Sequence record: OZ346167.1 | Reading direction: 5' to 3' (one strand) | Source: a phage | DNA: 64,000 nucleotides | In this document: positions 9,373 through 42,361 of the stretch, piece after piece | Layout of the letters: every line of letters begins with the position of its first letter | How positions within the stretch are numbered: position 1 is the first letter of the stretch | Program-made: the position numbers and the translations under genes | Notes under the pieces: generated by a model | Databases searched by the model: none | The model's input: the letters and a program-made list of their open reading frames with translations, nothing else | What the model was told of the DNA's origin: nothing

Positions 9373-9939
9373 TCAAGATAGTTTTGCAAACTCTCCGTGG
9401 AGTTTAATAGCAGCTTCACAGTAAGCTTTATGGGCTTCTTCAGGTGTGTCATGGTAACCTAAAAACATCTTCTTACCTTTATAACTTATCTGTGCGACCC
9501 ACTTACCAGACTTCTTCTTCAGGCTTACACCCTTATAGCCTGATTTATTGGTGGATAGTTTGCTTTTATTCCAAGCACTTTGGTAGTCATATGCTTCTCT
9601 TAAGTTTACAATCCTGTTATCAAGGGAGTCTCCATTAATATGGTCAATAACACCTTTCGGCAACCTACCATACATGTACAGCCATGCGAGTCTGTGTGCT
9701 TTATGTGCTTTCTTGTCAAAATAGATAGTAATCTGCTTATGACCAGTTGAGTCAATCTGGATGCTCCCCGCTACCTGTCCTGCGTACTGACTATTAAAAA
9801 CTTTAACAGCCTTTGAGTCGCCCTCTCTACGAAGCCAAGTAAAGACCCCTGTTTCGGGGTCATAGTGTAGTAGTTCCTTTAAACGTTCTTTTGTAATCAT
9901 TTTGTCACCATTAATGCACTTCCAACCACGATTTACCAA
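9373..9939 (-). CDS. HNH homing endonuclease with AP2-like DNA-binding domain
   Basis: LHYDPETGVFTW N-terminal motif, HINGD..N HNH core, GYKGVS..GKW AP2-like tail; paralog of 19771..20262. Confidence 0.8.
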   Translation of the reverse strand: MVNRGWKCINGDKMITKERLKELLHYDPETGVFTWLRREGDSKAVKVFNSQYAGQVAGSIQIDSTGHKQITIYFDKKAHKAHRLAWLYMYGRLPKGVIDHINGDSLDNRIVNLREAYDYQSAWNKSKLSTNKSGYKGVSLKKKSGKWVAQISYKGKKMFLGYHDTPEEAHKAYCEAAIKLHGEFAKLS

Positions 9940-10465
9940 CCTTTGCTGTACCAGTTACAAGTGTTTCTTTCCTCAAACCTAAGTTTTTTGAAGCTTGTCC
10001 ATACATCCAGTCAGCAATTGCTTTCATATCATGTGTCATACCCTCTGGACATTCCCAACTATTTTCATCGTGATATGCCAGAAGTAACCTTGCTCCGATA
10101 GCTGGTTTTCGAGCATTCAGTTTTGTCAGGCCATCTTCACAGGCTTTTCTTGCTGCTAGGTTGATGGCCTCATTCTGAATCTGTGCTTCCGAACTCATCA
10201 GGAGGTAGTTCAGTAGTTTATGTGGAGATTTGCACCATATCCATGCTCCAGCGACCCTGATATAACCACCTTTAGCAATTGAAGAATTCTTCCCAAAAAC
10301 CTCTTCCAGAGCCTTTTTAGACGCCTTAAAATCGGCTTCTAAGCTATCAAGTAACTTCTTAATCTTTGGCAGACGCATATAGTAAGTTTGTTTAGTTAAT
10401 GCACCTTCCTCTGTAGAAGCTGCCTTAATGGTTTTGGCAAACTTCTCATCACCTGCACCGAACAA
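9911..10465 (-). CDS. DNA polymerase (family A), 3' exon: end of motif B and motif C
   Basis: begins (L)FGAGDEK (motif B end; T7 pol has YGAGDEK) and contains LLAYHDE (motif C). Confidence 0.8.
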   Translation of the reverse strand: MFGAGDEKFAKTIKAASTEEGALTKQTYYMRLPKIKKLLDSLEADFKASKKALEEVFGKNSSIAKGGYIRVAGAWIWCKSPHKLLNYLLMSSEAQIQNEAINLAARKACEDGLTKLNARKPAIGARLLLAYHDENSWECPEGMTHDMKAIADWMYGQASKNLGLRKETLVTGTAKVGKSWLEVH

Positions 10466-10736
10466 TACATCTGGTCAATACACTCGCAAGGTGTACCAGT
10501 TCTCTTATGAACTTCTCCGCATTTCTACGGAGTGTCGGACTATATCACGTAGTAGTAATACTACCGTTGCACTTGGGAATGGTCATTGGCTTACCACCCT
10601 ACTCTACTCAGTTCATACGTTAAGTATGCTTTTCGATAGTCTCTGAACGTTCCTCTTAAGAGGCTTCGCTGCTGATTACCATATCTTTACAGACTTAGGC
10701 TTCCAGCAATTCACAACGTTTTACATGCGCCACTGA
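10466..10736 (-). mobile_element. Group I intron (ORF-less, about 270 nt) splitting the DNA polymerase gene inside motif B; boundaries approximate
   Basis: stops in all frames; transcribed strand carries Q/R/S-like core elements AATCAGCAGC, GTTCAGAGACTA, GATATAGTCC. Confidence 0.7.
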
Positions 10737-12908
10737 CGCATAAATGCCATTTTTGGCTTTCTTACGACCTTTTGTAATCTCGTGGAGAAGTTCCTCATCC
10801 TGTGTCTCCCTACAACGAACAATATCTTCTTCCTTGTTCAGACCAAAGTAAATACTGTTCAGTGTATGCGCATCAGTCCCTGTGTAGACTTCATAGAGGT
10901 CGTTCTCAGCATCATAACGAAGATACTTGTCAGTTTCTGGATTAAGGTGCTTATCAAGATGTTTGCAATAATATCTCCCATCTTCTTGCTTGGTAAATTC
11001 TACTGACTCTTTACCTTCAGTTACTGCTTTAGTGAACTCTTTATCACCCATAAAGTTACACAGTAAAACAAGCTGTGCAGAGTTCTGGTCAACAGAAACA
11101 ATGTTAGTCCCCTCTTCACAAATCCACACTGCCCTCATAGGTGCTCCATAGACAGCAGCACCAGACGGTACGTTTACAATACCATATTGTGTCATACGTC
11201 CAGTTGAAGTACCAAACACCATTGCACCAGCACTAAGGCGACCATCAGGACGAATCTGGTTCAACCAACCTTTTTCATCATCCTTTGAGTTCTCAATAGT
11301 TCTGCGTCGGTGCATCAAAGTATAGTACTTAGCAATCTTCTGTCCAAGCTCACCTTCAATCGTATCATAAGATGATTCAGTAAGTTTTGGTGAAGTACGG
11401 ATTAAGCAAGGCTCAAGCAAGTCTGTGTATTTCTTCACAGACCAGTTATGCTCAATGTACTGTACACCTTCATGTTCAACATAACTCAAACCACACCGCT
11501 CAACCATTTCCTGCCACTTAGGATGCTTTGTAATCATCTTTTTATTGTCTTTGAAACGACAAACTTTGACAGGGCGACCATCTGAGTCTTTCTTGTAATT
11601 CCAGTCATCTGGAATCCAACCAACTGATTTCAAGTAGTCTTTAACAACTGCTACCTGAGTCATACGAGAAACTTCAAACTCAATTGGTGTATATGGTGCA
11701 TCAATCAAACCTGTGTAGCGACTTGACTCAAGTTCAAAGTGATTAACAACGTGGCTGTTATAGTACTTCACAGTTTTGACTGTTTTTACTGGCTTCCAGT
11801 CTTTGCATTTCTTACCAATCTTTGCGTTCAACTCATTGCAAATTGCACGAGCATCCTTCATTGCTACAAATCCCTCTTTGTACTCTTCACCAGTTACAGA
11901 GTTGGTTGGTGTATAGCAATTTCTCTTTTCAATGTTAAAAATCTTTGTAGTTGGCTTACCAAATGGCTTGATTTCATATGTCTGCATCTCACCGTTACGT
12001 ACCTGCTGACGATACTTTGTCTTAGGGTACTTGGTAATCCTCTTCAGCCCATCTGCATGACCGAATGCTTCAACATATTCATTCCAAGCTTTTGCAAACT
12101 CTTCTCCAGTAACTTTACCTTTGGTCTTAATAGTTGGAGGAAGATGTGGTTCAACCTCTGAAGCAAGCTCATTAGTCAACTTGTCAAGTTCCTTTACATG
12201 GAACTCCATAAGCTCTTTATCAGCTTTCCAACCATTGATAGCTTGCTGGCTCATCCAGAAAGATGTTTCTTTAGCTCGCATGTAGGTTTCATAAGTGTCT
12301 ATGCCACACTTCTTAAGCTTGAGATACTCGTTATCAAGTGCCCGTTTAGTTTTGGCGTTAATACGGATATCTTCTACGACACGAGTGAAGATTTCTGCAT
12401 TCCACACACCCCAATGCTCAATCTCTGGCTTACGAACACCAACACGAGCACCCCATGCAGCCAAACCATGAGCACCTTTATAACCCTTTGGAGTTGGCCT
12501 ATCCATCCACTGAACACGAGACTGGATAAGAGAATCCTGAAAGAAATTACCCCACGGCTTACATTTTGGATTATCAAAGTTCCATAAATCAGGTGCAATG
12601 TGATTGAAAACCCACCAGTCATAACCGAGACCATTATGGATGCAAAGACGTTTTGCCTTTAACGCAAATTCAACACCTTCACGTAAACCACCTTTGATGT
12701 ACTTAGTGTACTTGTGACCGAGGATAGGCTCATCTGTAAAGACCCATACAGGTGGCTCTTCATCGTCAGATTTATAGTCTGCAAAGGCCATTACGTGAAC
12801 TTTAGTGAACTCAAGGAGTAAACCATCAGTTTCTGTATCACCAACCAAATGTAAGTTTTTAAAATCTACGTTTTCCATTTTTACTCCCTCTAAAATCATT
12901 AACCTCAT
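10695..12908 (-). CDS. DNA polymerase (family A) with 3'-5' exonuclease domain, 5' exon (ORF runs into the intron; true exon probably ends near 10737)
   Basis: exonuclease motif VGDTETDG near N-terminus; ends ...RKKAKNGIYA at start of motif B. Confidence 0.85.
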   Translation of the reverse strand: MRLMILEGVKMENVDFKNLHLVGDTETDGLLLEFTKVHVMAFADYKSDDEEPPVWVFTDEPILGHKYTKYIKGGLREGVEFALKAKRLCIHNGLGYDWWVFNHIAPDLWNFDNPKCKPWGNFFQDSLIQSRVQWMDRPTPKGYKGAHGLAAWGARVGVRKPEIEHWGVWNAEIFTRVVEDIRINAKTKRALDNEYLKLKKCGIDTYETYMRAKETSFWMSQQAINGWKADKELMEFHVKELDKLTNELASEVEPHLPPTIKTKGKVTGEEFAKAWNEYVEAFGHADGLKRITKYPKTKYRQQVRNGEMQTYEIKPFGKPTTKIFNIEKRNCYTPTNSVTGEEYKEGFVAMKDARAICNELNAKIGKKCKDWKPVKTVKTVKYYNSHVVNHFELESSRYTGLIDAPYTPIEFEVSRMTQVAVVKDYLKSVGWIPDDWNYKKDSDGRPVKVCRFKDNKKMITKHPKWQEMVERCGLSYVEHEGVQYIEHNWSVKKYTDLLEPCLIRTSPKLTESSYDTIEGELGQKIAKYYTLMHRRRTIENSKDDEKGWLNQIRPDGRLSAGAMVFGTSTGRMTQYGIVNVPSGAAVYGAPMRAVWICEEGTNIVSVDQNSAQLVLLCNFMGDKEFTKAVTEGKESVEFTKQEDGRYYCKHLDKHLNPETDKYLRYDAENDLYEVYTGTDAHTLNSIYFGLNKEEDIVRCRETQDEELLHEITKGRKKAKNGIYASVAHVKRCELLEA

Positions 12909-18746: not shown

Positions 18747-19793
18747 ATGGAGAAGTACACATTAACAAAACTTCCCGATTCAGTTACACATGTCTTTATT
18801 GACTCTGACAGTATTGCCTATAAAGGTGCTTGTGTAGTTGAGAAAGCAAAGTATAAATATGTCAATAAACTCACAGCAGAAGAGTCTGAGCCATTTGATA
18901 ATGCGAAAGATGCCGCAAGATGGTTAGCAGACCAGAGAATCTTTGTGGAAGAGCTTGGTCTGACATTTGATGAAGATGAATGGGAAAGACAGACTTGGAA
19001 AGAAGCTAAGAGTGAAAAAGAAGCTATCATGGCTACTCAACAGGTTCTTCAGGAATGGCTTAAGTTTGTTGGTAAAGATAGAACTTGGGTGGGTTATTTA
19101 ACAGAGAAAGGTGTGCATAAACATAAAGACATTAAAGGTCTTGAGCACCAATATCAAGGTAACCGCAAAGATGCTGTCACACCAACACACTTAGTTGCTT
19201 GTCGTGAATATCTTTTATCCAGACCAGAGTTCAAACTCTTAAGGGGTGGCTTCGAAGCCGATTCAATCGTAATTGCTAAAGCTGAAAAGATGGGTAAGAA
19301 AGCTGCTCTTATGAGTATTGACAAAGACCTTCGACAAGCTGAAGGTACTTACTGCATTGATATGACCTATGAAAAATCACCTTTAATTTTTATTGCTGAT
19401 AACAACGTTGGTGAAATTTGGGATTGCCCAATAAAATCAACACCGAAAGCTAAGAAGACAGTTGGGGTAGGTTTTAAATTTCTTTGTTATCAAGCTGTGG
19501 CTGGTGATAATGCAGATAACTATTTTGGTTTAAAGGGCGTTGGTAAGGTTGCTGTAATGAAAGCCCTTGAAGGTAAAACTACTTACAAAGAGTGTCTTGA
19601 TGCAATCTATGAACTTTATGCTAAGAAAGAGTCCTACACTTATGTCTCGTGGGATGGTCAAACAATTACCAGAACACCTTTAGAACTAATGCAGCAACAC
19701 TTCTTCTTAGCTTATCAGGAAAGAAATAAGAAAGACGATTTTACTTTTGATAAGTATGGGTGGACACCAAATGTTAACTCAACAAACTCTTAA
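18747..19793 (+). CDS. 5'-3' exonuclease / flap endonuclease (FEN family)
   Basis: acidic nuclease motifs VFIDSDS and H3TH-like LKGVGKVAVMKALEG. Confidence 0.65.
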   Translation: MEKYTLTKLPDSVTHVFIDSDSIAYKGACVVEKAKYKYVNKLTAEESEPFDNAKDAARWLADQRIFVEELGLTFDEDEWERQTWKEAKSEKEAIMATQQVLQEWLKFVGKDRTWVGYLTEKGVHKHKDIKGLEHQYQGNRKDAVTPTHLVACREYLLSRPEFKLLRGGFEADSIVIAKAEKMGKKAALMSIDKDLRQAEGTYCIDMTYEKSPLIFIADNNVGEIWDCPIKSTPKAKKTVGVGFKFLCYQAVAGDNADNYFGLKGVGKVAVMKALEGKTTYKECLDAIYELYAKKESYTYVSWDGQTITRTPLELMQQHFFLAYQERNKKDDFTFDKYGWTPNVNSTNS

Positions 19794-20262
19794 AGAGTAC
19801 CTACATTATGACCCCGAAACAGGGGTCTTTACTTGGATTAAGAAATCTGCTAGACACACAAAAATTGGCTCTGTTGCAGGTACAAACTTAAGAGGGTATA
19901 CCAGAATTTATTTGTTTGGTAAGGGCTATTATGCACATACCCTAGCCGTTCTGTATATGGATGGATACCTACCTGAGTGTGTTGACCATAAAAATCATGT
20001 AACACTAGACAATCGCTGGGTAAATCTTAGGGCATGTACGTTATCAGAGAACCAATGTAATAGGTTGCTCAATAAGAACAATAAATCAGGTGTTAAAGGT
20101 GTGTACTACAAAAAACAGTATGGTAAGTGGTCTACACAGATAACTTTTAAGAAAAGGGTCTACTTCTTCGGCAACTATGACACTATTGATGAAGCAGCAG
20201 AGGTTGTAAATAGGGAACGTCAACGTTTACACAAAGAGTTTGCTAATAAAGGTGATGAATGA
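19771..20262 (+). CDS. HNH homing endonuclease with AP2-like domain (paralog of 9373..9939)
   Basis: LHYDPETGVFTW..VDHKNH..N..GVKGVYY..GKW. Confidence 0.75.
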   Translation: MLTQQTLKEYLHYDPETGVFTWIKKSARHTKIGSVAGTNLRGYTRIYLFGKGYYAHTLAVLYMDGYLPECVDHKNHVTLDNRWVNLRACTLSENQCNRLLNKNNKSGVKGVYYKKQYGKWSTQITFKKRVYFFGNYDTIDEAAEVVNRERQRLHKEFANKGDE

Positions 20263-20759
20263 GAAAAATAAAAGGTTTTGGCAATTGCCCTGAATATGGA
20301 CATTGGGTTTCACTATGTGGTGAAGTTGACCCAGCAAAGCACTTTGGTTTTGTCTACCTAGTGTACTGCAAAAAGACTGGACAGTACTATTTGGGTAAGA
20401 AACAGCTTAACAGTGTGACCAAAAGAAAAGTTGCTGGGAAGACTCGGAAGAAGATAGTCACTAAGGAAAGTGATTGGATGACTTATGAGACTTCTTCTGA
20501 GTATATTAAAAAAGATATTGAGAGTTTTGGAAAAGAATTTTTTGACTTTTACATTATTCAGACCTACTACACAAAAGGTGGCCTAGTCTATGGTGAAGCA
20601 AACCTTCAACATAAATTCGATGTAATGACAAAAAGGATTGACTCTAAGCTCAGACTCTTCTACAATGCCAATATTGCAGCAATTAAGTTTATCACTAAAG
20701 AAACTTATGAAGATGCTGAAAAAAGAATCCATAAGGTAATGAAAGCAAATTATGCTTGA
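20259..20759 (+). CDS. GIY-YIG family endonuclease (seg-like)
   Basis: FVYLVYCKKTGQYYLGK matches GIY...YIG spacing; ATGA overlap with upstream stop. Confidence 0.65.
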   Translation: MRKIKGFGNCPEYGHWVSLCGEVDPAKHFGFVYLVYCKKTGQYYLGKKQLNSVTKRKVAGKTRKKIVTKESDWMTYETSSEYIKKDIESFGKEFFDFYIIQTYYTKGGLVYGEANLQHKFDVMTKRIDSKLRLFYNANIAAIKFITKETYEDAEKRIHKVMKANYA

Positions 20760-26545: not shown

Positions 26546-27745
26546 ATGAACAAAGTACAGATTATTAAAAAGAACGGCTCACTTGAAGAACCTGATATCA
26601 AAAAAGTTTTAGCAGCAGTCACAAAGTCAGCTAATAGGGTTGGGTATAAAGAACTCCCACCAGATGTTACCCAAGCTCTTGAGTCAGCATTTATGAGGAT
26701 TCTGGTAAAATCCACTAAGCAGAATAATTTACTCATTTCAGTAAATGATATTCACAGTATTGTTGAGGGTGCTTTGGCAGAAGTCAATCACGAGATTTAT
26801 GAGTCTTACTCAACATATAGAAATTACCGTAAAGAAGTTGCTCAAAATTGGGATGAACTCTACCAGAAGACCAAAGATACACTCTTCTTAGGTGACAGAG
26901 AGAATGCTAACTTTGACAGCAGTTTAATTTCTACAAAAGGTTCAATTATTCGTGGTTATCTGACTAAAGAAATCTTTAAACAGTACCATTTAACACCAGA
27001 GGAACTTGAAGCCATTGAAAAAGGGTTTATCTATATCCATGATTTAAGAGACCTAATTTTTGGTGGTATCAACTGTTGCCTGTTTGACATTGGTAAAGTC
27101 CTGAAAGGCGGCTTTGAAATGTCTGGCATCGAATATTGTGAACCAAAGTCTGTACTGTCGGCCTTACAGGTTATTGGTGACGTAGTTCTTTCAGCAACTG
27201 CACAGCAATTTGGTGGTTTTACTTTAGCAGAGATTGATAAGGTACTTGTACCGTATGCTAAGAAGTCTCTACGCTATCATGCTGAGAAAGCAGCATCTTA
27301 TGGTATTCCTAAAGAACATTACCACAATTATGTCATGGAGCAGCTACAGATTGAACTGACTCAAGGTTTCCAGTCACTTGAAATGAAGCTAAATACTGTA
27401 CCTTGTAGTCGTGGGGATTTTGCATTCACAACTTTGACATTCGGGTTACTTGACTCAGATATGTCCAATGAAGATAACCGACTGCAATATATGATTGCAA
27501 GTACTCTCCTAGATGTTCGTATGAATGGACAAGGTAAGAGCAAGAAGCCTGTTGTATTCCCTAAACTGGTTTATATCTATGACCAGAAGAGACACGATGA
27601 GAATATCTGTCAAGGACACCTGTACAGTAAAGCCATTGAGTGTTGCTCTAAAGCAATGTATCCAGATTTCTTAAGTGTATCTGGTCATGGTGCTGTAGCA
27701 GAAGCTTTTGAGCGTTCTGGCAAGGTAATTTCGCCGATGGGTTAA
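26546..27745 (+). CDS. nrdD: Anaerobic ribonucleotide reductase, 5' exon
   Basis: ATP-cone N-terminus; reading frame broken by intron after ...VISPMG. Confidence 0.85.
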   Translation: MNKVQIIKKNGSLEEPDIKKVLAAVTKSANRVGYKELPPDVTQALESAFMRILVKSTKQNNLLISVNDIHSIVEGALAEVNHEIYESYSTYRNYRKEVAQNWDELYQKTKDTLFLGDRENANFDSSLISTKGSIIRGYLTKEIFKQYHLTPEELEAIEKGFIYIHDLRDLIFGGINCCLFDIGKVLKGGFEMSGIEYCEPKSVLSALQVIGDVVLSATAQQFGGFTLAEIDKVLVPYAKKSLRYHAEKAASYGIPKEHYHNYVMEQLQIELTQGFQSLEMKLNTVPCSRGDFAFTTLTFGLLDSDMSNEDNRLQYMIASTLLDVRMNGQGKSKKPVVFPKLVYIYDQKRHDENICQGHLYSKAIECCSKAMYPDFLSVSGHGAVAEAFERSGKVISPMG

Positions 27746-28490
27746 CAGGCTCTATAGCTCATCTAAAACGTGCCTAAACAGGGAAACTCTACAGGTGTAG
27801 ACAATCCTGTGCTAAATGATGTACGATGTAAGAAACTATACAATATAGGAGTCTTACATGCCAAACTATCACGTCACTGAAGATGGAAAAGTCTTTAGGG
27901 AAAATGGTGTAGAGCTTACGCAGTGGAAATCCAACACTGGGTATATGAAAGTGAGGTTTTACGGTAAGAAGAATCGTGACATGTATGTCCACAGGTTAGT
28001 TGCTGAGAAATATGTACCTAACCCGAATAATCTTCCAATTGTAAAACATAAGGACGATAACAAACTAAATAACCACGCATCTAACTTAGAATGGGGTACT
28101 CATTCTGAGAATGCTAAAGAGGGTTATGAGAACGGATGTTACAAGTTCCACAAGCGTTCATATGCCGTGAAAGCCACACACAAAGTGACAAAGGAAGTTA
28201 TTGTTACTAAGTCAATACGAGAGTTGTCCAATATACTTGGACACAATCGCAAGACCATCTCTTCAATATTGAAGGGTGTAAAAGAGCATAATAACTTCGA
28301 ATATGAGTTTGAATACATCTAAATGCCGAACGACTAACCGTGATGAATGTAGCGGTGTAGGGTCAAGCGACTCGAAATGGTACGCTACTTAGAAATAAGT
28401 AGAAGATATAGTCTGGACTTACTGGCGACAGTAAGCAGCTTGAATAAAGCGGGGTAAGCTTAGCGAACTTACCTGAACAACAAGTGTAGA
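27746..28490 (+). mobile_element. Group I intron in nrdD carrying an HNH homing endonuclease ORF; boundaries approximate
   Basis: CTAAACAGGGAAACTCTACAGGTGTAGACAATCCTGTGCTAAAT resembles my recollection of the T4 td intron core; S-like AGATATAGTC in 3' part. Confidence 0.75.
27858..28322 (+). CDS. Intron-encoded HNH homing endonuclease
   Basis: HRLVAEKYVPNP...HKDDNKLNNHASNLEW HNH core. Confidence 0.75.
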   Translation: MPNYHVTEDGKVFRENGVELTQWKSNTGYMKVRFYGKKNRDMYVHRLVAEKYVPNPNNLPIVKHKDDNKLNNHASNLEWGTHSENAKEGYENGCYKFHKRSYAVKATHKVTKEVIVTKSIRELSNILGHNRKTISSILKGVKEHNNFEYEFEYI

Positions 28491-29432
28491 GCGTTTTTAT
28501 CACCATACCATAACGAATATGGTGAAGAGTTTTATGTAGGTCGTGCTAACATTGGTGCTGTATCTTTGAACTTACCAATGATTTACCAGTATTCTAAAGA
28601 GAATGGCTTAGATTTCTGGAAAGAGCTTGATAAGTACCTAGAAATGATTCGCAGCTTCCACAAGAAACGTTACGAAATGATTGCTAATATGCCAGCAAGT
28701 TCTAACCCTCTTGCATTCACACAGGGTGGTCTGTACAAAGGGAATAAGAAACCTACTGACAAGGTTGGCTGGGATATCGTGAAGTCCTTCACAGCTTCTT
28801 TTGGGGTTACTGCGCTTGATGAGCTATCTGTTCTTGCTGAAGGTAAACGACTTCATGAAGTTGGAAGCTGTAGTTTTGCATATGATGTTCTGGAATATAT
28901 CAACATGAAGACTGAAGAGTTTAAAAATGAAGATGGCTTCTTATATGCAGTCTATGGCACTCCAGCAGAATCACTTTGTGGAACTCAGCTAAAACAGTTC
29001 AGAGATATGTTTGGCGTTATCAAAGGCGTTTCTGACAAGGAATACTTTACAAACAGTTTCCATATGAATGTTGCAGCAGATATTACACCATTTGAGAAGC
29101 AGGACTTAGAAGAACCCTTCTTCCATATCTGTAGAGGCGGCAGAATCCAGTATGTAAGAGTGGCTAACCCAGAAAACTTATCAGCACTTAAGAGTTGTAT
29201 TACAAGAGGGATGTTGAAAGGTTTCTATCAGGGACTTAACTTTGACTTAGCAATCTGTGAACATTGTGGTAACAGACCAAAGGCTGATGTTGAAGAATGT
29301 GAGGTTTGTCATTCACACGATATCTCTGTGATTAACAGGGTGTGCGGATATTTGGGATGGACTAAGATTAAAGGTGAATCCCGAATGAATGATGCAAAAA
29401 TCGCTGAGATTCGTGACAGAATTTCTATGTAA
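28491..29432 (+). CDS. nrdD: Anaerobic ribonucleotide reductase, 3' exon (glycyl-radical domain)
   Basis: frame opens at 28491; GRANIGAVSLNLP block; C-terminal Zn site CEHCG..CEVCH and glycyl radical motif RVCGYLG. Confidence 0.85.
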   Translation, partial: AFLSPYHNEYGEEFYVGRANIGAVSLNLPMIYQYSKENGLDFWKELDKYLEMIRSFHKKRYEMIANMPASSNPLAFTQGGLYKGNKKPTDKVGWDIVKSFTASFGVTALDELSVLAEGKRLHEVGSCSFAYDVLEYINMKTEEFKNEDGFLYAVYGTPAESLCGTQLKQFRDMFGVIKGVSDKEYFTNSFHMNVAADITPFEKQDLEEPFFHICRGGRIQYVRVANPENLSALKSCITRGMLKGFYQGLNFDLAICEHCGNRPKADVEECEVCHSHDISVINRVCGYLGWTKIKGESRMNDAKIAEIRDRISM

Positions 29433-32670: not shown

Positions 32671-32941
32671 AGAAAAGTGGGAGATTTTACCATTAGTCAG
32701 TGAAGGCGGCAATGGTTGTGAAATGTACATGATACGTGGTCATATTCCAGAGCCAATTGCACTTGAGATGGTAAATAATTATACAGATGGTTCCTGCAAA
32801 GACTTAGGAGAACCAACTGTCAAGCAGCAATGGGTAAAGCCTGTGCCAGACAGCACAGGTAACTGTAGTGTACTTTATCACGTTGTAGACCCTGTAAAAT
32901 GCAAATCTGCAATGGCAGTAACAAACGTAACTTTTGATTGA
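32663..32941 (+). CDS. Hypothetical protein
   Basis: 92-aa ORF. Confidence 0.5.
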   Translation: MAKEKWEILPLVSEGGNGCEMYMIRGHIPEPIALEMVNNYTDGSCKDLGEPTVKQQWVKPVPDSTGNCSVLYHVVDPVKCKSAMAVTNVTFD

Positions 32942-32952
32942 GAGAGAAAACT

Positions 32953-33834
32953 ATGAAAACATCTATCCGTGTTACAATTCATTCACCAACTAAAGGAACT
33001 CATGAAGAAGAGTTTAACATCATTCAATTCCCTTCTGGTGAGATTGGTGGACACTTTTCACAAGAGCTAGTTGATTTTACTGCTTATGCAGCATCCTCCA
33101 TTAACAATGTGGTTATGATTGTAAAAGGCTACGACAAGGACACATTGTTTGCTGTGGCACTTGCTAAAGAAGCAATTGATGATTTGATTCCTCATGATTA
33201 TGCCTTAAAGACTGTCATCTTTTACTACTTACCAAATGCACGATATGACCGTCACATGTTTAAAGGTGATGCAGCAGCTTTGAAGGTTTTTGCTAAACAG
33301 GTTAATGCAATGGGGTTTGGTGCAGTCTGTGCAGTTGACCCTCACAGCTATGTACCAGATAACCTGTTTAACTGCTTCCAGAGTATTCCTCAAAAGGAGA
33401 TTGCAGTCCACTATGCAAATGACCCACTGGTTGATTACTTAGTAGCCCCAGATGCAGGTGCTGCTAAGAAGGTTGCAGAGACCGCTAAAGAGGTGGATAA
33501 ACCATATATCACAATGTCTAAGGTGCGTAACCTTAAGACTGGTGAAATTACTGGTATGCGAATCCTTGATGATGTTGATTTGACAGATAAAACCGTCATG
33601 ATTCTGGATGATATCTGTGATGGTGGTCGAACCTTCATAGAAGCAGCTAAGCATCTTCGTGAAGCAGGTGCAAAACGTGTGGAACTTTATGTAACACATG
33701 GTATCTTCTCTAAAGATGTTGAAAACCTTCTTGACAATGGTATCGACCATATTTACACTACAAACTCTTTAGGCGAAGCTAAAGACCGTGGCTTAACACA
33801 TTATGGTCAAGTTACTGTAGCAAACCTTGATTGA
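32953..33834 (+). CDS. Ribose-phosphate pyrophosphokinase (Prs) homolog; candidate ADP-ribose pyrophosphokinase of a NARP1-type NAD+ reconstitution pathway
   Basis: phosphoribosyltransferase-type binding loop VMILDDICDGGRT; immediately upstream of NAMPT homolog. Confidence 0.7.
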   Translation: MKTSIRVTIHSPTKGTHEEEFNIIQFPSGEIGGHFSQELVDFTAYAASSINNVVMIVKGYDKDTLFAVALAKEAIDDLIPHDYALKTVIFYYLPNARYDRHMFKGDAAALKVFAKQVNAMGFGAVCAVDPHSYVPDNLFNCFQSIPQKEIAVHYANDPLVDYLVAPDAGAAKKVAETAKEVDKPYITMSKVRNLKTGEITGMRILDDVDLTDKTVMILDDICDGGRTFIEAAKHLREAGAKRVELYVTHGIFSKDVENLLDNGIDHIYTTNSLGEAKDRGLTHYGQVTVANLD

Positions 33835-33938
33835 AAGTTTATAGGGGCTTGAAAGCCCCATTTTGAGAGAGATTAAAAGATGACTAAATCACTTTATGCA
33901 GTACCAGCAGGTTTAAACGCAGATGCTTACAATATCTT

Positions 33939-35291
33939 ATGTTGAACCTGACACCACGTAGTGACAAATGGTTTAACAGCCCTTTGGCAATTGACGGTGT
34001 AGTGGCTTTTGGTATTCAACGTTTCGTTAAAGATTACTTGATAGACCATTGGAACGCCACTTTCTTTGAACGTGACAAAAAAGAAGCAATTGACGAAATC
34101 TTAGAAGTCATGAACGGCGTTATGGGTAAAGATGCTATTGGTCGAGAGCATTGGGAAGCACTTCACGACTTAGGTTATCTACCAGTTGAAGTATACGCTG
34201 TAGAAGAAGGCACAGTTGTCCCGATGCGTGTCCCAATGATTGTCTTCCAGAACACTGTTTCAGGTTTCCATTGGGTAGCAGGTTATCTGGAAGATGCTTT
34301 CTCTGCTGAGATTTGGAAGGCTTGCACCATTGCAACTATTGCATTGCATTATAAACGCATCTGTAAGAAGTGGGCTGACCTTACTTGTGACAACGACTTA
34401 CATTTACCTTATCAGTGTCATGACTTTGCTATGCGTGGTATGTCAGGCTTTACTGATGACGCATTTAACGCTGTAGGTCACTTAACCAGCTTTAAAGGAA
34501 CTGATAGCTTCCCTACTGTGTATACGGCTAAACGAATCTATGGACAGTCCTACCCAATCTCTGATATTGGTAGCTCTGTACCAGCCACTGAACACTCTGT
34601 AATGTGTGCAAACATTGCTTGGGAAGGTGGTAATGAATTGATTGAAGAAGAAAGACGCTTTAAAGGTGAGTTACAAACCTTCCGTCGCTTCTTAACAGAA
34701 ACTTACCCAACTGGTATTGCAAGTATTGTTTCAGATACTTATAACTTCTGGAGAACTGTGTCAGAAATCTTACCAGCACTCCGTAAAGAGATTATGGAAC
34801 GTGATGGCAAACTGGTAATTCGGCCTGACTCTGGAGACCCTGTACATATTGTCACAGGATATAAAGCAATCCACTTAGAGTGTGCTAAGAAGGCTTATTA
34901 CGAACACTTAAGCAAGCTTGAAGCCAGCGACACAATGTTGAATGCTGTTCTGAACATGAAGCTTGAAAACATCAATTATGGTATTGCTGGATGGCTACTG
35001 TCAGAAGGCTACGAAATGGTTGTTGACAGAGAAGACTTTGAAGTTGCTGATACAGTGCTGTTGAAAAACGCTTATATGGTTGGTTCTGCAAACGTTGTAA
35101 CACGTCCTGTAGCTGAGATTGATGGAGCTATTAAGACACTGTACAACATCTTTGGGGCTTTGTATCTCACCTTGATGTTGAAATTGATGAAGAAGGTTAC
35201 ATCATTGGTTGGAAGAAAGTATCTACTCGTGAAGGCAAGCTGGTTGACTCCCACACCTACAGAGTACCTAATGATTTGGGTAACATTGTAG
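33939..35291 (+). CDS. Nicotinamide phosphoribosyltransferase (NAMPT/NadV) homolog; candidate NARP1 Namat; both ends uncertain
   Basis: NAMPT blocks HDFAMRGMSGF, HLTSFKGTDS, SVPATEHS, VSDTYN, IRPDSGDP; C-terminal 45 aa look non-native. Confidence 0.7.
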   Translation: MLNLTPRSDKWFNSPLAIDGVVAFGIQRFVKDYLIDHWNATFFERDKKEAIDEILEVMNGVMGKDAIGREHWEALHDLGYLPVEVYAVEEGTVVPMRVPMIVFQNTVSGFHWVAGYLEDAFSAEIWKACTIATIALHYKRICKKWADLTCDNDLHLPYQCHDFAMRGMSGFTDDAFNAVGHLTSFKGTDSFPTVYTAKRIYGQSYPISDIGSSVPATEHSVMCANIAWEGGNELIEEERRFKGELQTFRRFLTETYPTGIASIVSDTYNFWRTVSEILPALRKEIMERDGKLVIRPDSGDPVHIVTGYKAIHLECAKKAYYEHLSKLEASDTMLNAVLNMKLENINYGIAGWLLSEGYEMVVDREDFEVADTVLLKNAYMVGSANVVTRPVAEIDGAIKTLYNIFGALYLTLMLKLMKKVTSLVGRKYLLVKASWLTPTPTEYLMIWVTL

Positions 35292-35602
35292 AAATGCCAC
35301 GTTGGATGGTTGATAATAACCGTAACGTGACTTGCTCTCAAGGTCTTCATGTTGGTGCTTGGGATTATGTTCGTTGCTTCTCAGGTGATACAATTCTGAA
35401 GGTTCGTGTCCATCCACGAGACGTTGTATCCGTACCAACTGATTACAACGATATGAAGATGCGCTCGTCTCGTTATGAAGTTGCAGCAATCGTTGATAAT
35501 CAACGTAAAGTGCTGAAAGCATGGGATGGCAAGACTGAAGCTTTGCATGTCATCGTTGGCACTGCTGGGGAACTCATCTCTCAGCGTAAACGTGAAATCT
35601 AA
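35276..35602 (+). CDS. Hypothetical protein, or C-terminal continuation of the NAMPT homolog in an alternate frame (frame opens at 35135 without ATG)
   Basis: 108-aa ORF overlapping NAMPT 3' end; protein-like sequence precedes its first ATG. Confidence 0.4.
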   Translation: MGNIVEMPRWMVDNNRNVTCSQGLHVGAWDYVRCFSGDTILKVRVHPRDVVSVPTDYNDMKMRSSRYEVAAIVDNQRKVLKAWDGKTEALHVIVGTAGELISQRKREI

Positions 35603-35702: not shown

Positions 35703-36251
35703 ATGAAGAAATTGATTCTAGGTTTGTGCTTAATGTTTACAGCACACTTAGCTTATGCAGTTGACTGCCCAGAGCTATCAATTAGCCAAAAAGTAAACAT
35801 GTTAAAAGCTTACCAGTATGGTGAGAATAACATGGGTAAAGGTTGGGGTATCACTCTAGCTGCTATAGCCTTACAAGAGTCAGAGTTAGGTCTGAAGGTA
35901 GAGAATAAAAAGACACACGATTATGGTATTTTCCAGAATCACTTGAAGACTGTTGTAAAGCGTAACAAAATTAGTCCTAATGTGGCTAAAAAGAAACTCT
36001 TAAAAGACTTTGACTATGCTGCAAAGGAAACGCACAAAGAACTTGAGTTTTGGACAAAGGTGCATGGTCAGCCAAAGTCAAAGAAGACTTTACAAAAAGT
36101 TTTAGCATCATATAATGCTGGGTATTCGTACAGAATCCCTAAAGCTAAGAAGTATTCTCAAGATGTCTATAACAACATGAAAGTTATTGCCCAATGTGAA
36201 TTTGCAACAAACATTTCTAAGGTAAACCATGAAAAAATTAAGAAAGTCTGA
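35703..36251 (+). CDS. Secreted lytic transglycosylase-like protein
   Basis: signal peptide MKKLILGLCLMFTAHLAYA; catalytic-region-like ALQESELG...YGIFQ. Confidence 0.5.
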   Translation: MKKLILGLCLMFTAHLAYAVDCPELSISQKVNMLKAYQYGENNMGKGWGITLAAIALQESELGLKVENKKTHDYGIFQNHLKTVVKRNKISPNVAKKKLLKDFDYAAKETHKELEFWTKVHGQPKSKKTLQKVLASYNAGYSYRIPKAKKYSQDVYNNMKVIAQCEFATNISKVNHEKIKKV

Positions 36252-36924
36252 TGAAGTCCTGTGCCATGCTTATGACTTGCATCCTCATGAGTTAGGTCTT
36301 GATTCCTGTGTATGGACTCCAGAACAGTATAGGGATTTTGAAGACACTGCAAGAGAAGTTGTATGTTCACTTGAAGAGTTCCACACATCAGAACCAATCG
36401 TGAACGTTGTGGACAAAGAGACTGGACAGACTGTAGGGGTAAGACGTGATAGCTTAGTCATAGTCAATAGAGACCTTGTAGAAAAAGGGAACCTCATCTT
36501 AGCAGATATTGATGGTGTTCTTACAAATTTTAATCCAGAAGATTACTCAACGGAATTGACTGATGGTTCATTTTCACAGTACACTAATCTCCTTGACTCT
36601 GTAAGAGCAAAACCAACGTATGTTTTCAATATCATTGATGCAATTGCTAATCATGCTGCCGTTGGACTCTTGACAGCGAGAGGCGAATCTCAGAGAATAC
36701 CTACTGAGATGTTTTTAAGGCATAACACAGAGCATGACTACATGCTTTTTATGCGTGGTTTTGGGACTAACTCTATAAGTGCAGAAAGTTTGAAAGTGAG
36801 GATGATTCAGTCTTGCATTCTGCCTTACTTTAATATAGTATGTTTTATAGAAGACACAGAGAAGAATGTGCAGAAGGTGAACAGAATCCTTCCACACATT
36901 AAAACCATGTTAGTTAAACATTGA
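36229..36924 (+). CDS. Hypothetical protein
   Basis: 231-aa ORF. Confidence 0.5.
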   Translation: MKKLRKSDEVLCHAYDLHPHELGLDSCVWTPEQYRDFEDTAREVVCSLEEFHTSEPIVNVVDKETGQTVGVRRDSLVIVNRDLVEKGNLILADIDGVLTNFNPEDYSTELTDGSFSQYTNLLDSVRAKPTYVFNIIDAIANHAAVGLLTARGESQRIPTEMFLRHNTEHDYMLFMRGFGTNSISAESLKVRMIQSCILPYFNIVCFIEDTEKNVQKVNRILPHIKTMLVKH

Positions 36925-38855: not shown

Positions 38856-39057
38856 AAAGACACGAAAACTTATCAGGTCAGCAGTGTTCATTGGACGAAA
38901 TGAGGTCATCCCATTTACAGCAAATGATGTGATAGCTTACAGGAAGAACTTAGTATTCACTGACTGCTTACGTGGCTTCATCTCTGAACCATTGGAAGAC
39001 TTTAAAAGTCGTTGTGGTAAAGGTATCATCATTCAAGAGGCAATTATTCATGGCTGA
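38830..39057 (+). CDS. Hypothetical protein
   Basis: 75-aa ORF. Confidence 0.45.
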   Translation: MKVILARDKKTRKLIRSAVFIGRNEVIPFTANDVIAYRKNLVFTDCLRGFISEPLEDFKSRCGKGIIIQEAIIHG

Positions 39058-39250
39058 CTTCTGTAAAGACTGTTCTATCGAAATGTTCGGACGTGATACA
39101 GGTGACTTAAAAGGTCTTATCACTGAAGAGGACTTTAAAGCTGGCTATGCAATGCCAGTAATCTGTGAAGGATGTGGATGTATCTGGGTAGACCATGAAG
39201 GGCAACGTGTAAAACCTTCAGAAGATAAAGAATCTTGGGAGAGATGTTAA
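39050..39250 (+). CDS. Small zinc-binding protein
   Basis: CKDC...CEGCGC cysteine pairs; internal ATG chosen. Confidence 0.45.
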   Translation: MADFCKDCSIEMFGRDTGDLKGLITEEDFKAGYAMPVICEGCGCIWVDHEGQRVKPSEDKESWERC

Positions 39251-40030
39251 ATGGGTATTGTAAAAGTTGTAAAAGGTAACTTACTGGCTGCCTTCAAAAA
39301 CACAGATATTGAGTTAATTGCTCATGGTTGCAACTGTCGTAACCTCATGGGTGCTGGAATCGCTCAAAAAATTGCTAAGATTTTCCCAAAAGCTGAAGAA
39401 GCTGACCGGAAATTCCATAAAAAGTTTGGCTACAGTGCTCATGATATCGGATACCAGATGGTGGGTGAGGTGTCACATGCTCGAACGGAGTACGGTTACA
39501 TTTTTAACCTGTATACACAGTTGGATGTTGGGAAGTGTGCATCATACCGATACTTAGTGGAGTCACTAGAAAAACTCCGTAAGTTTTGCTGGCTGCACAA
39601 CATTCGTAAGATTGGTTTACCCATGATTGGTGCAGGTATCGGTGGTTTAGATGCACAAGCTGTGAAAAGCCTCATTAATAGTGTTATGTACAACGTTGAT
39701 GTGTACCTATATGTCTATGATGAAGCAATGGCAAGTGTAGTTACCCCTAAGTATGCTACCTCAGCACCACAATTCTATGATGGTGTCGTGCTCAGTGATG
39801 GTAAGTCTAACCATGTTACCCTCTATCAGCTTGTTGATGGTGAAGTTGAGGTTAGTTACCCTCTGGTTAGTGAGATGGGTATGTGCAATAGTGAAATGTT
39901 CCCAGTTGACCCGTTTGGAAGATATGAAGGTGTATTCTTTGATAACTACCCAGCAGCGTACATCTACACAACAAATCAGGATGAAGTTCACTACTTGCTG
40001 TATTCTAAAAAGTTCAAATTCATAAGCTGA
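39251..40030 (+). CDS. Macro domain protein (ADP-ribose binding/processing)
   Basis: macro-domain hallmark AHGCNCRNLMGAGIA and second glycine-rich loop GLPMIGAGIGG. Confidence 0.7.
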   Translation: MGIVKVVKGNLLAAFKNTDIELIAHGCNCRNLMGAGIAQKIAKIFPKAEEADRKFHKKFGYSAHDIGYQMVGEVSHARTEYGYIFNLYTQLDVGKCASYRYLVESLEKLRKFCWLHNIRKIGLPMIGAGIGGLDAQAVKSLINSVMYNVDVYLYVYDEAMASVVTPKYATSAPQFYDGVVLSDGKSNHVTLYQLVDGEVEVSYPLVSEMGMCNSEMFPVDPFGRYEGVFFDNYPAAYIYTTNQDEVHYLLYSKKFKFIS

Positions 40031-40059
40031 TTAGTACTTCATAGTATCTACAAATCATC

Positions 40060-40105
40060 TAAGAAGGCTGCCTAACCCATTGAAAAATTTAAGGTAAGGC
40101 GGCCT
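40060..40105 (+). terminator. Terminator-like hairpin
   Basis: AAGGCTGCC..GGCGGCCTT + TTTTC. Confidence 0.5.
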
Positions 40106-40420
40106 TTTTCATTTTCAATTTGTGCAGGTATCTGTAGGGGTCTGTACAGATATCCCAAAAAATCTCATCGCCGGATAGAAAAATCATTCTCAAAACGTGC
40201 AGACCCCGCTCAGGTCGGGCAAGAAAAATCATTTTAGAATTGTGCAGGTAGGTTTTTATAGAGAGCCAGCCCAGCCCCTCTCCCCCTCTTACTCCCCCTC
40301 TCCCCAAAAGTCAAGAGAAAAATTTGTAGCGGATTGAAAAATAATTCTTGATTTGCGTTCTGTTTTGTGGTAGTCGTGCGCACCCGTTTCATTACAGTTT
40401 TGCCAAAAATATTTTTAAAA
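40105..40420. repeat. Iteron-like direct repeats (AAAAATCATTnnnAnnnTGTGCAGG, about 4 copies) with a C-rich tract CCCCTCTCCCCCTCTTACTCCCCCTCTCCCC
   Basis: repeat copies near 40105, 40185, 40222, 40322; no ORF with RBS. Confidence 0.55.
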
Positions 40421-40426
40421 TTTTTA

Positions 40427-40518
40427 TTGACTCTTTGAACGTGGTTACCTAATATTTACATCAACGGGGAGGGAATGACCTTCCCCACTAAATAAAATCC
40501 TAAACTGGAGATTCAAAA
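40427..40518 (+). promoter_or_regulatory. Early-type promoter (TTGACT-N17-TAATAT) + leader hairpin GGGGAGGGAATGACCTTCCCC + conserved RBS leader
   Basis: type-2 reiterated element, also at 43068, 43934, 45178, 45745, 46339. Confidence 0.6.
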
Positions 40519-40707
40519 ATGGCATCAAGAAAAATTAAAGTTGGCGATGAGGTTAACATCAAGCACGAACACTCTTACAAAATGCTAACTATACGCTCTT
40601 ATAAGGTTTATCAGGTGGAAGCTATCCACAAAGATAACACTTTTTCCTTAAAAGGTTATAGCGAACGTTTCCCTGCTGAACTCTTTGAGAAATGGAGCGC
40701 GAAATAA
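40519..40707 (+). CDS. Early small protein
   Basis: 62-aa ORF behind type-2 element. Confidence 0.55.
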   Translation: MASRKIKVGDEVNIKHEHSYKMLTIRSYKVYQVEAIHKDNTFSLKGYSERFPAELFEKWSAK

Positions 40708-40913
40708 TGCTTTACAGTCGTGAATTGATGGTTACAACTAACGTTAACACAAAGGTAAAACGTTTTTACATGCAAATTTGTGGCGTATGGTCTAGAATAT
40801 CAGAGGCTGACTATTGCAACTATGTAGAAACAGCTATAAACTCTAATTGCTATCTTACAAGAAATACAAGAAAGTACATAAGACAGACAGCAATTTACTA
40901 CTACGATAAATAA
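40707..40913 (+). CDS. Early small protein
   Basis: ATG overlapping upstream stop (TAATG). Confidence 0.5.
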   Translation: MLYSRELMVTTNVNTKVKRFYMQICGVWSRISEADYCNYVETAINSNCYLTRNTRKYIRQTAIYYYDK

Positions 40914-40999
40914 AGTACTTTACAAGGGGCTTATAGTTCGATAAAGTAAGCCCCAGATAAAGAGCTTTACCACTAAATCCTAAACTGGAGAACTTAAAA
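40914..40999 (+). promoter_or_regulatory. Type-1 intergenic element: hairpin GGGGCTTA..TAAGCCCC + conserved leader AGATAAAGAGCTTTACCACTAAATCCTAAACTGGAGA
   Basis: reiterated at 41384, 41762, 42362, 43435, 44226; stem shows compensatory changes. Confidence 0.6.
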
Positions 41000-41380
41000 A
41001 TGGCATACCGCGCACCGAAATTCATCAATAAAGAAAATTTTCGTAATGTATTAGAGAAGGCGCTTGATGAAAAATTTAACGGCAAAATAATTGTTGTTCA
41101 CTCGTTCAATTTCAAGTATGATATCAACGGGAATAAAATCAACCATTACACGGCAACCATGTTAGATGGCAATCTTTCAAGTGAAAAAGCCGTACTGAAT
41201 GCACTTGCTGGACGTGGAAAAAATCTGATAAGATGTGATAAGAGACGTTATCAGGGCGGCGCATATGGTTATGATGATGCTATCTATCATCTTGAAAATA
41301 TGGGCTATCAAGTAGAAAAAGCTGGAGTATCACAAATCATCGGGAGCGATGGTTATGTAACAATCTTCAAAATTAACTGA
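41000..41380 (+). CDS. Early small protein
   Basis: 126-aa ORF behind type-1 element. Confidence 0.55.
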   Translation: MAYRAPKFINKENFRNVLEKALDEKFNGKIIVVHSFNFKYDINGNKINHYTATMLDGNLSSEKAVLNALAGRGKNLIRCDKRRYQGGAYGYDDAIYHLENMGYQVEKAGVSQIIGSDGYVTIFKIN

Positions 41381-41383
41381 TAA

Positions 41384-41469
41384 AGTACTTTACAAGGGGC
41401 TTATAGTTCGATAAAGTAAGCCCCAGATAAAGAGCTTTAACACTAAAATCCTAAATTGGAGATTCTAAA
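41384..41469 (+). promoter_or_regulatory. Type-1 intergenic hairpin/leader element
   Basis: same sequence family as 40914..40999. Confidence 0.6.
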
Positions 41470-41763
41470 ATGGCTATTATCAGAAACGTTGTAATTACTG
41501 CAAAGACTCGTGATGACGCTCGCGCTATGGCTAAAAAGTTATGCGGGAAAGTGGTTGACAACGGAAAACAATCTGCTGTAAGATGGGGCGTAAAGGTTGA
41601 TAAACATTTGAAGTTAAAAAATTCACCGATAAACCTTTTTACATGTGTAAACACTATCGGGAAGACAAATGTATACACGAAAAAGGCATATATTAGACGC
41701 GTAGCATTAACATCCCCCATTCGTACAATGAGAAGTTATGCAAAGCTAAAAATTAACAAATAA
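41470..41763 (+). CDS. Early small basic protein
   Basis: 97-aa ORF. Confidence 0.55.
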   Translation: MAIIRNVVITAKTRDDARAMAKKLCGKVVDNGKQSAVRWGVKVDKHLKLKNSPINLFTCVNTIGKTNVYTKKAYIRRVALTSPIRTMRSYAKLKINK

Positions 41764-41848
41764 AGTACTTTACAAGGGGCTTAAAAGCTGGTATCTTAAG
41801 CCCCAGATAAAGAGCTTTACCACTAAATCCTAAACTGGAGATTCCAAA
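41762..41848 (+). promoter_or_regulatory. Type-1 intergenic hairpin/leader element (loop variant)
   Basis: GGGGCTTAAAAGCTGGTATCTTAAGCCCC. Confidence 0.6.
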
Positions 41849-42361
41849 ATGAAAACTGTAGACGCTACCTTTGAAGTTGTAAAAGAAAAATTCACCATTA
41901 TTTATGAAGCTGTTAATTGCTACGAAGCAAGCCATAATCTTGATAATTGGAAGTTTACAGATGACCATCAAGGCGGCGTGACTATTAAAAACCCTAACTG
42001 TCAGCGTAACGATTTTAAATATGCAATCCCTTTAAATTATAGCCTTAAACAGCTTTCTAGTGACTATGCAAAACAAGGCCGGGAAAACCCATCAAAAGAG
42101 GCTTACACCAGCTTACAGAAAGAACTAGAAAGAGATTTAGAGGCTTCAGAATACAACCTTGCCGCGAAAGTTATCGATGCAAATGGCAACACGGTTTTAG
42201 AGAGTTTTTATCTAGGATATGCCTTTGATTGGTGCTATAGTGACGGCGATGATTTAGATGACAGACTAAAAGAGGAAGTGAACAATTCAGACGCAGAATC
42301 TGAAGTATTAGAACGTCTGGAATCATTAAAAGACTCAGTGATGAATATCTTTAAGAACTAA
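41849..42361 (+). CDS. Early protein
   Basis: 170-aa ORF. Confidence 0.55.
   Translation: MKTVDATFEVVKEKFTIIYEAVNCYEASHNLDNWKFTDDHQGGVTIKNPNCQRNDFKYAIPLNYSLKQLSSDYAKQGRENPSKEAYTSLQKELERDLEASEYNLAAKVIDANGNTVLESFYLGYAFDWCYSDGDDLDDRLKEEVNNSDAESEVLERLESLKDSVMNIFKN

Follow-up and report, generated by a model that had tools for sequence, protein, structure and literature searches.

Few accessory genes of large phages are as common as macrodomains, to which roles have been assigned only since late 2025. HIDEN-SEQ identified tk.4 as the single T4 gene that is conditionally essential against DarTG2, a result that was confirmed by a clean knockout, and the product was named AdfM (10.1101/2025.11.20.689424). 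A second role is linked to NARP1, the Adps/Namat operon for NAD+ reconstitution that was first discovered in the Felixounavirus Bas63. The RES-domain NAD+ phosphorylase aRES splits NAD+ to nicotinamide and ADP-ribose (ADPR)-1''-phosphate (ADPR-1''P) and thereby defeats NARP1 (Osterman et al., 10.64898/2026.01.28.702374). According to the same study, 15% of NARP1 operons carry a Poa1p-like macrodomain protein, Adpp, which dephosphorylates ADPR-1''P and whose function is abolished by the substitutions H24A and N27A. In bacteria, SCO6735 removes ADP-ribose from thymidine in DNA independently of a Lys, its Asn positioning a Gln against the distal ribose (PMC9411070). Here we analysed a macrodomain gene (the macro gene) in a 64,000-nucleotide stretch of phage DNA (sequence record OZ346167.1; the whole stretch is called the window below). 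The window belongs to a Felixounavirus (FelixO1-like), and the region has matches of 80–99% DNA identity in about 250 phage records. The protein family and both of its candidate functions were already published between 2022 and 2026. New here are the two-domain Ounavirinae variant, its allelic mosaicism and its tentative placement with Tk.4 rather than Adpp. We predict a catalytically competent hydrolase with a Gln-type macrodomain, which would act at C1'' of ADP-ribose and serve counter-defence.

Results

The assignment of the gene product to the macrodomains is far beyond chance. A preliminary description, made from the sequence alone, had recognised the macrodomain by two motifs, AHGCNCRNLMGAGIA (residues 24–38) and GLPMIGAGIGG (residues 122–132). 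Both are present in the open reading frame (ORF) exactly as claimed, and profiles and structural model agree with this assignment (Table 1). Pfam PF01661 matched residues 25–140 with 28.9 bits against a gathering cutoff of 22 (expectation value (E) 1.2e-6), PHROG 335 covered the full length (E 5.9e-85), and the PADLOC DarG profile aligned its positions 2–150 of 329 with residues 4–163 (3e-16, 58 bits). The NCBIfam profile for full-length DarG (NF048014) reached 56.7 bits versus a cutoff of 250 and was matched at profile positions 2–152 only. Among PDB entries, phmmer found TARG1 (5e-8) and the T. aquaticus DarG macrodomain (6e-7).

A single-sequence AlphaFold2 model was unusable (predicted local distance difference test (pLDDT) 36.5), and we used a model based on a 32-sequence alignment instead (pLDDT 92.8, predicted template modelling score 0.88). 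Foldseek matched this model to the DarG structure 5m31 with an E of 8e-11. In the model, residues 1–157 fold as a macrodomain of the ALC1/TARG1/DarG/Poa1p class with the three-layer alpha/beta/alpha architecture. In sequence, the loops MGAGIA (33–38) and GAGIGG (127–132) align with the corresponding loops of TARG1, DarG and Adpp. The catalytic residues are not lost: H25, N28, Q90 and both glycine-rich loops are intact in alignments with the closest characterised relatives. In O-acetyl-ADP-ribose deacetylases of the MacroD/Af1521 type, the first GG loop is followed by a catalytic Asp, and the second loop has the aromatic pattern G-x-[YF]-G. The preliminary description had proposed MacroD and Af1521 for structural comparison; the window protein has neither the catalytic Asp nor the aromatic second loop of that type.

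A reference alignment, which we ran twice, splits macrodomains into two signatures. The first, with a catalytic Lys, is found in DarG of two species, in gp104 of PhiKZ (the chimallivirus 'AdfM', PMC13309987) and in TARG1. The second combines a Gln at the Lys position with the equivalents of H25 and N28, and it unites the window protein, all its relatives, T4 Tk.4 and every NARP1-adjacent Adpp. By this alignment, the window macrodomain is assigned to the His-x-x-Asn plus Gln subgroup (H25, N28, Q90). Q90 occupies the column of K80 in T. aquaticus DarG, K78 in PhiKZ gp104, K84 in TARG1 and Gln85 in SCO6735. H25 and N28 correspond to H24/N27 in the Adpp of Vibrio phage Gary (KNV71_gp137), to H23/N26 in Poa1p and to His24/Asn27 in SCO6735, and N28 in addition to N22 of DarG. 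Across 32 relatives, H25, G26, N28, N86, L87 and Q90 are invariant; conservation of Y88 and T89 is 90% or higher. In a neighbour-joining tree, 180 of 200 bootstraps set the Lys-type proteins apart in a split of their own. The DarG profile gives 133 bits for PhiKZ gp104, 58 for the window protein, 45–52 for Adpp and 36 for Tk.4.

Comparison with single characterised proteins gave a graded picture. With yeast Poa1p (PDB 6lfq), sequence similarity is confined to residues 4–61 (E 9e-5), and Poa1p presumably lacks a Gln at the Q90 position. The bacterial Gln-type ALC1-like proteins SCO6735 and BT1257 share the active-site residues (His24/Asn27/Gln85 for H25/N28/Q90), but they are cellular, single-domain proteins with a longer mobile loop that carries DNA-binding lysines (PMC9411070), and their sequence similarity to the window protein is weak (phmmer E 8e-4 to 5e3b). 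DarG2 and PhiKZ gp104 (PMC13309987) have the conserved Asn, and in its overall layout, with a second domain behind the macrodomain, the window protein resembles DarG. Unlike in these proteins, however, the catalytic Lys (K80/K78) is replaced by Gln, and the C-terminal domain is unrelated to the DarT-binding domain. A DarT toxin gene beside the macro gene was found neither in the window nor in the relatives' contigs examined. The objection that a protein without catalytic Lys is not a DNA ADP-ribosylglycohydrolase was rejected, since SCO6735 uses Gln and the Gln-type Tk.4 protects versus DarTG2. A single His/Asn/Gln subgroup carries two assigned functions, which is recognised here for the first time, and this subgroup with both recent roles (anti-DarTG2 Tk.4 and the phosphatase Adpp) also holds the bacterial, DarT antitoxin-like SCO6735.

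Fold and family membership were rejected as guides to function. DarG, TARG1, Poa1p and BT1257 match the model about equally, so that fold comparison does not discriminate. PHROG 335 merges Adpp, Tk.4 and the PhiKZ AdfM, and its assignment therefore cannot separate their functions; the family, labelled 'phosphatase', contains Lys-type and Gln-type 'AdfM' as well as Adpp. The name AdfM itself is in use for two types of macrodomain, Lys-type PhiKZ gp104 (PMC13309987) and Gln-type T4 Tk.4 (10.1101/2025.11.20.689424).

Within the His/Asn/Gln subgroup, exact motifs, loop length and a weakly supported tree favour a placement of the window protein with Tk.4 and not with NARP1-adjacent Adpp. The motifs HGCNC and NLYTQ are identical in the window protein and T4 Tk.4, whereas the corresponding motifs of Gary Adpp are HQCNC and NVYGQ. 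Behind the Gln (or Lys), the loop is 8 residues long in the window protein, in 11 of 11 two-domain relatives, in T4 Tk.4, in DarG and in TARG1, but 12–15 residues long in all ten NARP1-adjacent Adpp sampled. In the neighbour-joining tree the two-domain proteins formed a clade in 199 of 200 bootstraps; it paired with Tk.4-like proteins in 99 of the 200 and with Adpp alone in none of the 200. Like the window gene, tk.4 is an orphan that is unlinked to NARP1. Its product differs in being a single-domain protein of 155 amino acids without the C-terminal domain, and it is 33% identical. Gary Adpp shares PHROG 335, the His/Asn/Gln signature and the catalytic H24/N27 with the window protein, and its phage also has Adps and Namat. 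In contrast to the window protein, however, it is a single-domain protein (29% identical) that is encoded inside the NARP1 operon and has a loop longer by 4–7 residues. Adpp were monophyletic in only 2 of 200 bootstraps. Since NARP1-adjacent macrodomains are thus paraphyletic across the subgroup, phosphatase activity may be general to it.

The preliminary description had overlooked that the macrodomain is confined to residues 1–157. Residues ~165–259 are confidently modelled as a separate, fast-evolving, beta-rich domain (C-domain), which is found only in this gene family. Its modelled strands comprise residues 178–182, 189–195, 198–202, 214–218, 226–230 and 236–240, with the helix at 243–250. 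The two-domain layout is shared by about 20 homologues with 35–47% identity in a collection of 5.8 billion proteins. A Pfam search of the C-domain gave no match, a PDB profile search nothing better than E 0.24, and an exhaustive profile search among 1.84 billion representative proteins yielded only family members, two gene fragments and beta-propellers. We judged the propeller matches (WD40/PQQ) spurious, as a short blade-like motif was matched over many repeats. Fold searches with the full model were saturated by macrodomain matches, masking the fold of the C-domain. In BFVD, other two-domain macro proteins are 'tk.4' of Acinetobacter phage 133, Erwinia MM7 gp101 and proteins of the Vibrio phages YC and VP-1. 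We rejected the C-terminal extension of the Acinetobacter phage 133 Tk.4 as a relative of the C-domain (hhalign probability 0.8%, no sequence relationship).

Over 136 sequence pairs, mean identity was 54% for the macrodomain and 26% for the C-domain, which diverges twice as fast. Compared as DNA with VpaE1_ev108, which carries the common Felixounavirus allele, the window is 93.8% identical as far as codon 48 of the macro gene; identity collapses in the stretch listed in Table 1 and recovers to 88.5% beyond it. Within the diverged stretch, a patch at 39612–39720 over the GLPMIGAGIGG loop is 74% identical. This collapse between conserved flanks reveals the macro gene as a mosaic cassette. Of ~257 full-length phage matches, 13 carry the window-type allele intact; they include both Escherichia and Salmonella phages. 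A tblastn search with the window-type C-domain alone detected it in no phage record beyond these 13. A hypervariable domain that takes part in cassette exchange is more in keeping with a surface for protein contact than with an enzyme of purely metabolic role. Rapid divergence and exchange together suggest a contact surface under conflict, and we infer that the C-domain is a specificity or binding module under arms-race selection. In a more far-reaching proposal, which we regard as quite improbable, the protein would be a bipartite, DarG-like 'orphan antitoxin': the macrodomain would clear both DarT2 marks and ADPR-1''P, the C-domain would directly bind and block a protein of host defence, for instance DarT2 or aRES, and alleles would be swapped as cassettes among Felixounaviruses, tracking variants of their hosts.

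On its 5' side the macro gene is abutted (TAA-ATG) by a 66-amino-acid Cys-rich ORF (39050–39250; CxxC ... CxxCxC). We rejected it as a conserved partner: it is conserved within Felixounavirus, with 98% identity in VpaE1_ev108, but this conservation does not extend to the more distant contigs with a two-domain macro gene. The allele-variable spacer on the 3' side contains a C-rich tract, cccagcccctctccccctcttactccccctctcccc (40268–40305), which is G-rich on the minus strand, in a genome of 39% GC.

The neighbouring Prs-like and NAMPT-like pair of the preliminary description corresponds to NARP1. It had gone unnoticed that the Prs-like ORF (Adps) is intact and that the NAMPT-like ORF (Namat) is a truncated remnant. 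Owing to a 37-nucleotide frameshifting deletion near 33932, translation from the start codon at 33880 reads 21 codons and then meets a stop. A second deletion of 4.13 kb, at a microhomology of ~20 bp (junction 35133–35155), has removed the end of Namat past residue ~456 of 593, together with two small genes, rIIA and the first ~220 residues of rIIB. Full-length Namat aligns with solved phage Namat structures over residues 5–343 and 427–585; judged by this alignment, the two lesions cost Namat its N-terminal segment DAYKSGH and, at the C-terminus, the motifs YGD, GVGS and RDT. Neither lesion occurs in the ~250 matching phage records, that is, both are private to the window genome. NARP1 is almost certainly non-functional in this genome, and its annotation as NARP1-competent would be an error. 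Since Namat is a pseudogene, NAD+ reconstitution cannot be coordinated with anything here.

The close relative EcoM2 and three more distant Ounavirinae-like contigs share the order Adps – Namat – (small genes) – rIIA – rIIB – ... – SLT-like – PNK – small ORFs – macro. The block is co-directional in all four, with the macro gene 8–10 kb downstream of Namat and at least 11 genes from NARP1. In every relative examined it lies outside the NARP1 operon, beyond rIIA/rIIB and PNK. In the window, the distance between the macro gene and Adps/Namat is at least 11 ORFs and ~4 kb. This proximity is due to the private 4.13-kb deletion, and the nearness of 'a few kb', from which a coordinated NAD+/ADP-ribose set had been proposed, is thus a by-product of it. 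The idea of such a set has a published counterpart in NARP1-AP, which joins a macro gene to Prs-like and NAMPT-like genes, but at this locus the macro gene stands outside the operon, Namat is dead, and motifs and loop are Tk.4-like.

These observations bear on an alternative that we consider possible, though rather unlikely, namely that the protein is an Adpp-type ADPR-1''P phosphatase. As part of a dispersed NARP1-AP, it would turn the aRES product into ADPR for Adps and Namat. In line with this, Gary Adpp belongs to the same subgroup and to PHROG 335, and H25 and N28 are the conserved counterparts of the H24 and N27 whose mutation kills Adpp. It was in a Felixounavirus that NARP1 was discovered, Namat and the macro gene share one co-directional early block in every Ounavirinae-like contig examined, and aRES is found in E. 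coli, Klebsiella, Enterobacter and Salmonella; the paraphyly of NARP1-adjacent macrodomains points the same way. However, in relatives 8–10 kb and 11 genes or more separate the gene from NARP1, and it is not listed in the Adpp survey, which required a macro gene within two genes of NARP1 and whose Table S1 is without Felix, Salmonella or Escherichia phage (10.64898/2026.01.28.702374). Measured against that definition of Adpp/NARP1-AP, the window gene is too far away, and the functional Namat it presupposes is missing here but present in related genomes. The window protein also lacks the insertion of 4–7 loop residues seen in 10 of 10 sampled Adpp, and its exact motifs match those of Tk.4 from T4, a phage without NARP1. 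A hypervariable extra domain has no obvious reason in a metabolic phosphatase, and with a Namat pseudogene the pathway cannot run in the window genome.

The gene block points to one further alternative, a housekeeping role unrelated to defence. PNK (36229..36924) lies ~2.3 kb upstream of the macro gene and in the same block in all relatives, and ADPR-1''P is a by-product of KptA/2H RNA repair. The protein might then clean up ADPR-1''P from RNA repair, or reverse the marks of a phage ADP-ribosyltransferase. We regard this as very improbable: neither the annotation of EcoM2 nor the window ORFs that were scanned contained KptA/Tpt1, a 2H phosphoesterase or an ADP-ribosyltransferase, repair by the T4-type PNK pathway does not leave a 2'-phosphate behind, and hypervariability argues for a role in conflict. 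A phage ADP-ribosyltransferase or NAD-dependent ligase was also rejected as a partner: none is annotated in EcoM2, and the ligase of the window is of the ATP type.

Table 1. Positions of the macro gene, its parts and the NARP1 remnants in the window.
Feature	Position	Strand	Basis or remark
Macro ORF, 259 amino acids plus stop, ATG start	39251..40030	+	ORF list; 99% identical cluster P0001
N-terminal macrodomain, residues 1–157, modelled as ALC1/TARG1/DarG/Poa1p class, Gln-type subgroup	39251..39721	+	profiles, model, fold search
Motif H25-G-C-N28 ... M33-G-A-G-I-A38, including first glycine-rich ADP-ribose-binding loop	39323..39364	+	
Motif N86-L-Y-T-Q90, followed by short 8-residue loop as in T4 Tk.4	39506..39520	+	
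Motif G122-L-P-M-I-G-A-G-I-G-G132, second glycine-rich (phosphate-binding) loop	39614..39646	+	
C-terminal domain, residues ~165–259, modelled with six or seven beta-strands and one helix; isoelectric point 4.6 in window allele; hypervariable	39743..40027	+	model pLDDT above 90
Mosaic cassette, diverged versus common Felixounavirus allele VpaE1_ev108 apart from one patch	39394..40183	+	DNA comparison
Adps (Prs-like ADPR pyrophosphate synthetase of NARP1), intact	32953..33834 (ORF 32938..33834)	+	94% identical to EcoM2 over 293 amino acids, gapless
Namat (NAMPT-like) pseudogene	33880..35155 (ORF 33939..35291)	+	37-nucleotide frameshifting deletion and truncation
rIIB 3' end remnant, downstream of deletion junction	35133..35602	+	

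Several features elsewhere in the window were recorded in passing. The early region contains a family of ~65–95-nucleotide intergenic repeats (40458–40523, 40908–41000, 41370–41482, 41749–41854 and 42370–42500), which have counterparts of 80–98% identity at many intergenic sites in EcoM2 and VpaE1_ev108 and are probably repeated modules of early promoters or terminators. A group I catalytic intron (10515–10798, minus strand; Rfam RF00028, 64.2 bits, gathering threshold 50) overlaps the 3' end of a 737-amino-acid ORF (10695..12908) and, with the ORFs 9373..9939 and 9911..10465 just downstream, probably marks an intron-split gene. The anaerobic ribonucleotide reductase gene nrdD, a single gene of 2145 nucleotides in EcoM2, is split into the ORFs 26546..27745 and 28566..29432. 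The insert holds an HNH endonuclease ORF (27858..28322), and no Rfam intron was found there at the gathering threshold. Two back-to-back ORFs are of the homing-endonuclease type (HNH_3, 19747..20262; SegE-like GIY-YIG, 20259..20759). Finally, 25 tRNA genes lie on the plus strand between 57425 and 63554; relative to EcoM2, they include tRNA-Trp, and tRNA-Arg(acg) was not called.

Discussion

The reading we favour, with a probability of about 0.42, is that the macro gene has a Tk.4/SCO6735-type role and that its product removes the ADP-ribose marks of DarT2 from phage DNA. The ORF would then encode an early, two-domain counter-defence enzyme, the putative functional equivalent of T4 Tk.4 ('AdfM' of T4). 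Its macrodomain would bind the ADP-ribose moiety between the two glycine-rich loops, N28 would position Q90 against the distal ribose, as in SCO6735, and a water-mediated attack at C1'' would free ADP-ribose. The most likely substrate would be ADP-ribosyl-thymidine put on replicating phage single-stranded DNA by DarT2-type toxins. Since ADPR-1''P shares the C1'' leaving-group geometry, phosphatase action on it may persist as a second activity.

Several points weigh against this role. Support for the grouping with Tk.4 in the tree is only ~50%, and identity to Adpp of Pseudomonas phages, which are untested proteins, is 38% and thus slightly above the value for Tk.4. SCO6735 has a longer mobile loop, so that loop length does not map simply onto substrate. 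The function of Tk.4 is known from genetics only, its mechanism being itself inferred. NARP1 and the macro gene are both core genes of the same Ounavirinae early block, which fits an Adpp role too, and a literature search found no paper linking DarTG2 to Felixounaviruses. The C-domain has no similarity to the DarT-binding domain of DarG. Its isoelectric point ranges from 4.6 to 9.4 across the family; because the charge is not consistently acidic, DNA mimicry by this domain is unsupported.

A true dual role would go further than a retained side activity. One Gln-type hydrolase would cleave C1''-phosphate (in ADPR-1''P) as well as C1''-thymine, and thereby counter both aRES and DarTG2. In either reaction a group at C1'' of the distal ribose is substituted, enzymes shown to perform each of the two fall into one sequence subgroup, and macrodomains are commonly promiscuous on ADPR-1''P (10.64898/2026.01.28.702374, discussion). 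This combination is purely conjectural, and we consider it improbable.

That phage macrodomains serve counter-defence, as the preliminary description had assumed, is proven for homologues, namely T4 Tk.4 versus DarTG2 (10.1101/2025.11.20.689424) and Gary Adpp versus aRES (10.64898/2026.01.28.702374). Hydrolysis of signalling nucleotides by the window protein, which it had also suggested, found no support. Macrodomains can also be binders, and a non-catalytic ADP-ribose reader or sponge, for instance one that sequesters ADPR-derived immune signals, would fit an arrangement in a metagenomic phage, where only one gene separates a related single-domain macro gene from a Tad2-like sponge gene; for the window protein we consider such a role very unlikely. 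In that 102-kb phage (L008, 10001–12073), the macro gene (P0027) is of the same subgroup and lies in a replication module, and the gene between it and the Tad2-like gene (anti-Thoeris sponge family) is DnaB-like.

The Felixounavirus protein is a natural test case, as it combines NARP1 elsewhere in the genome, Tk.4-type motifs and a fast-evolving, cassette-exchanged domain. Its function would show whether one enzyme links counter-defence versus NAD+ depletion and versus DNA ADP-ribosylation. Against E. coli and Salmonella, Felixounaviruses are in wide use as phages for therapy and biocontrol, and allele-dependent counter-defence, if true, would therefore affect their host range.

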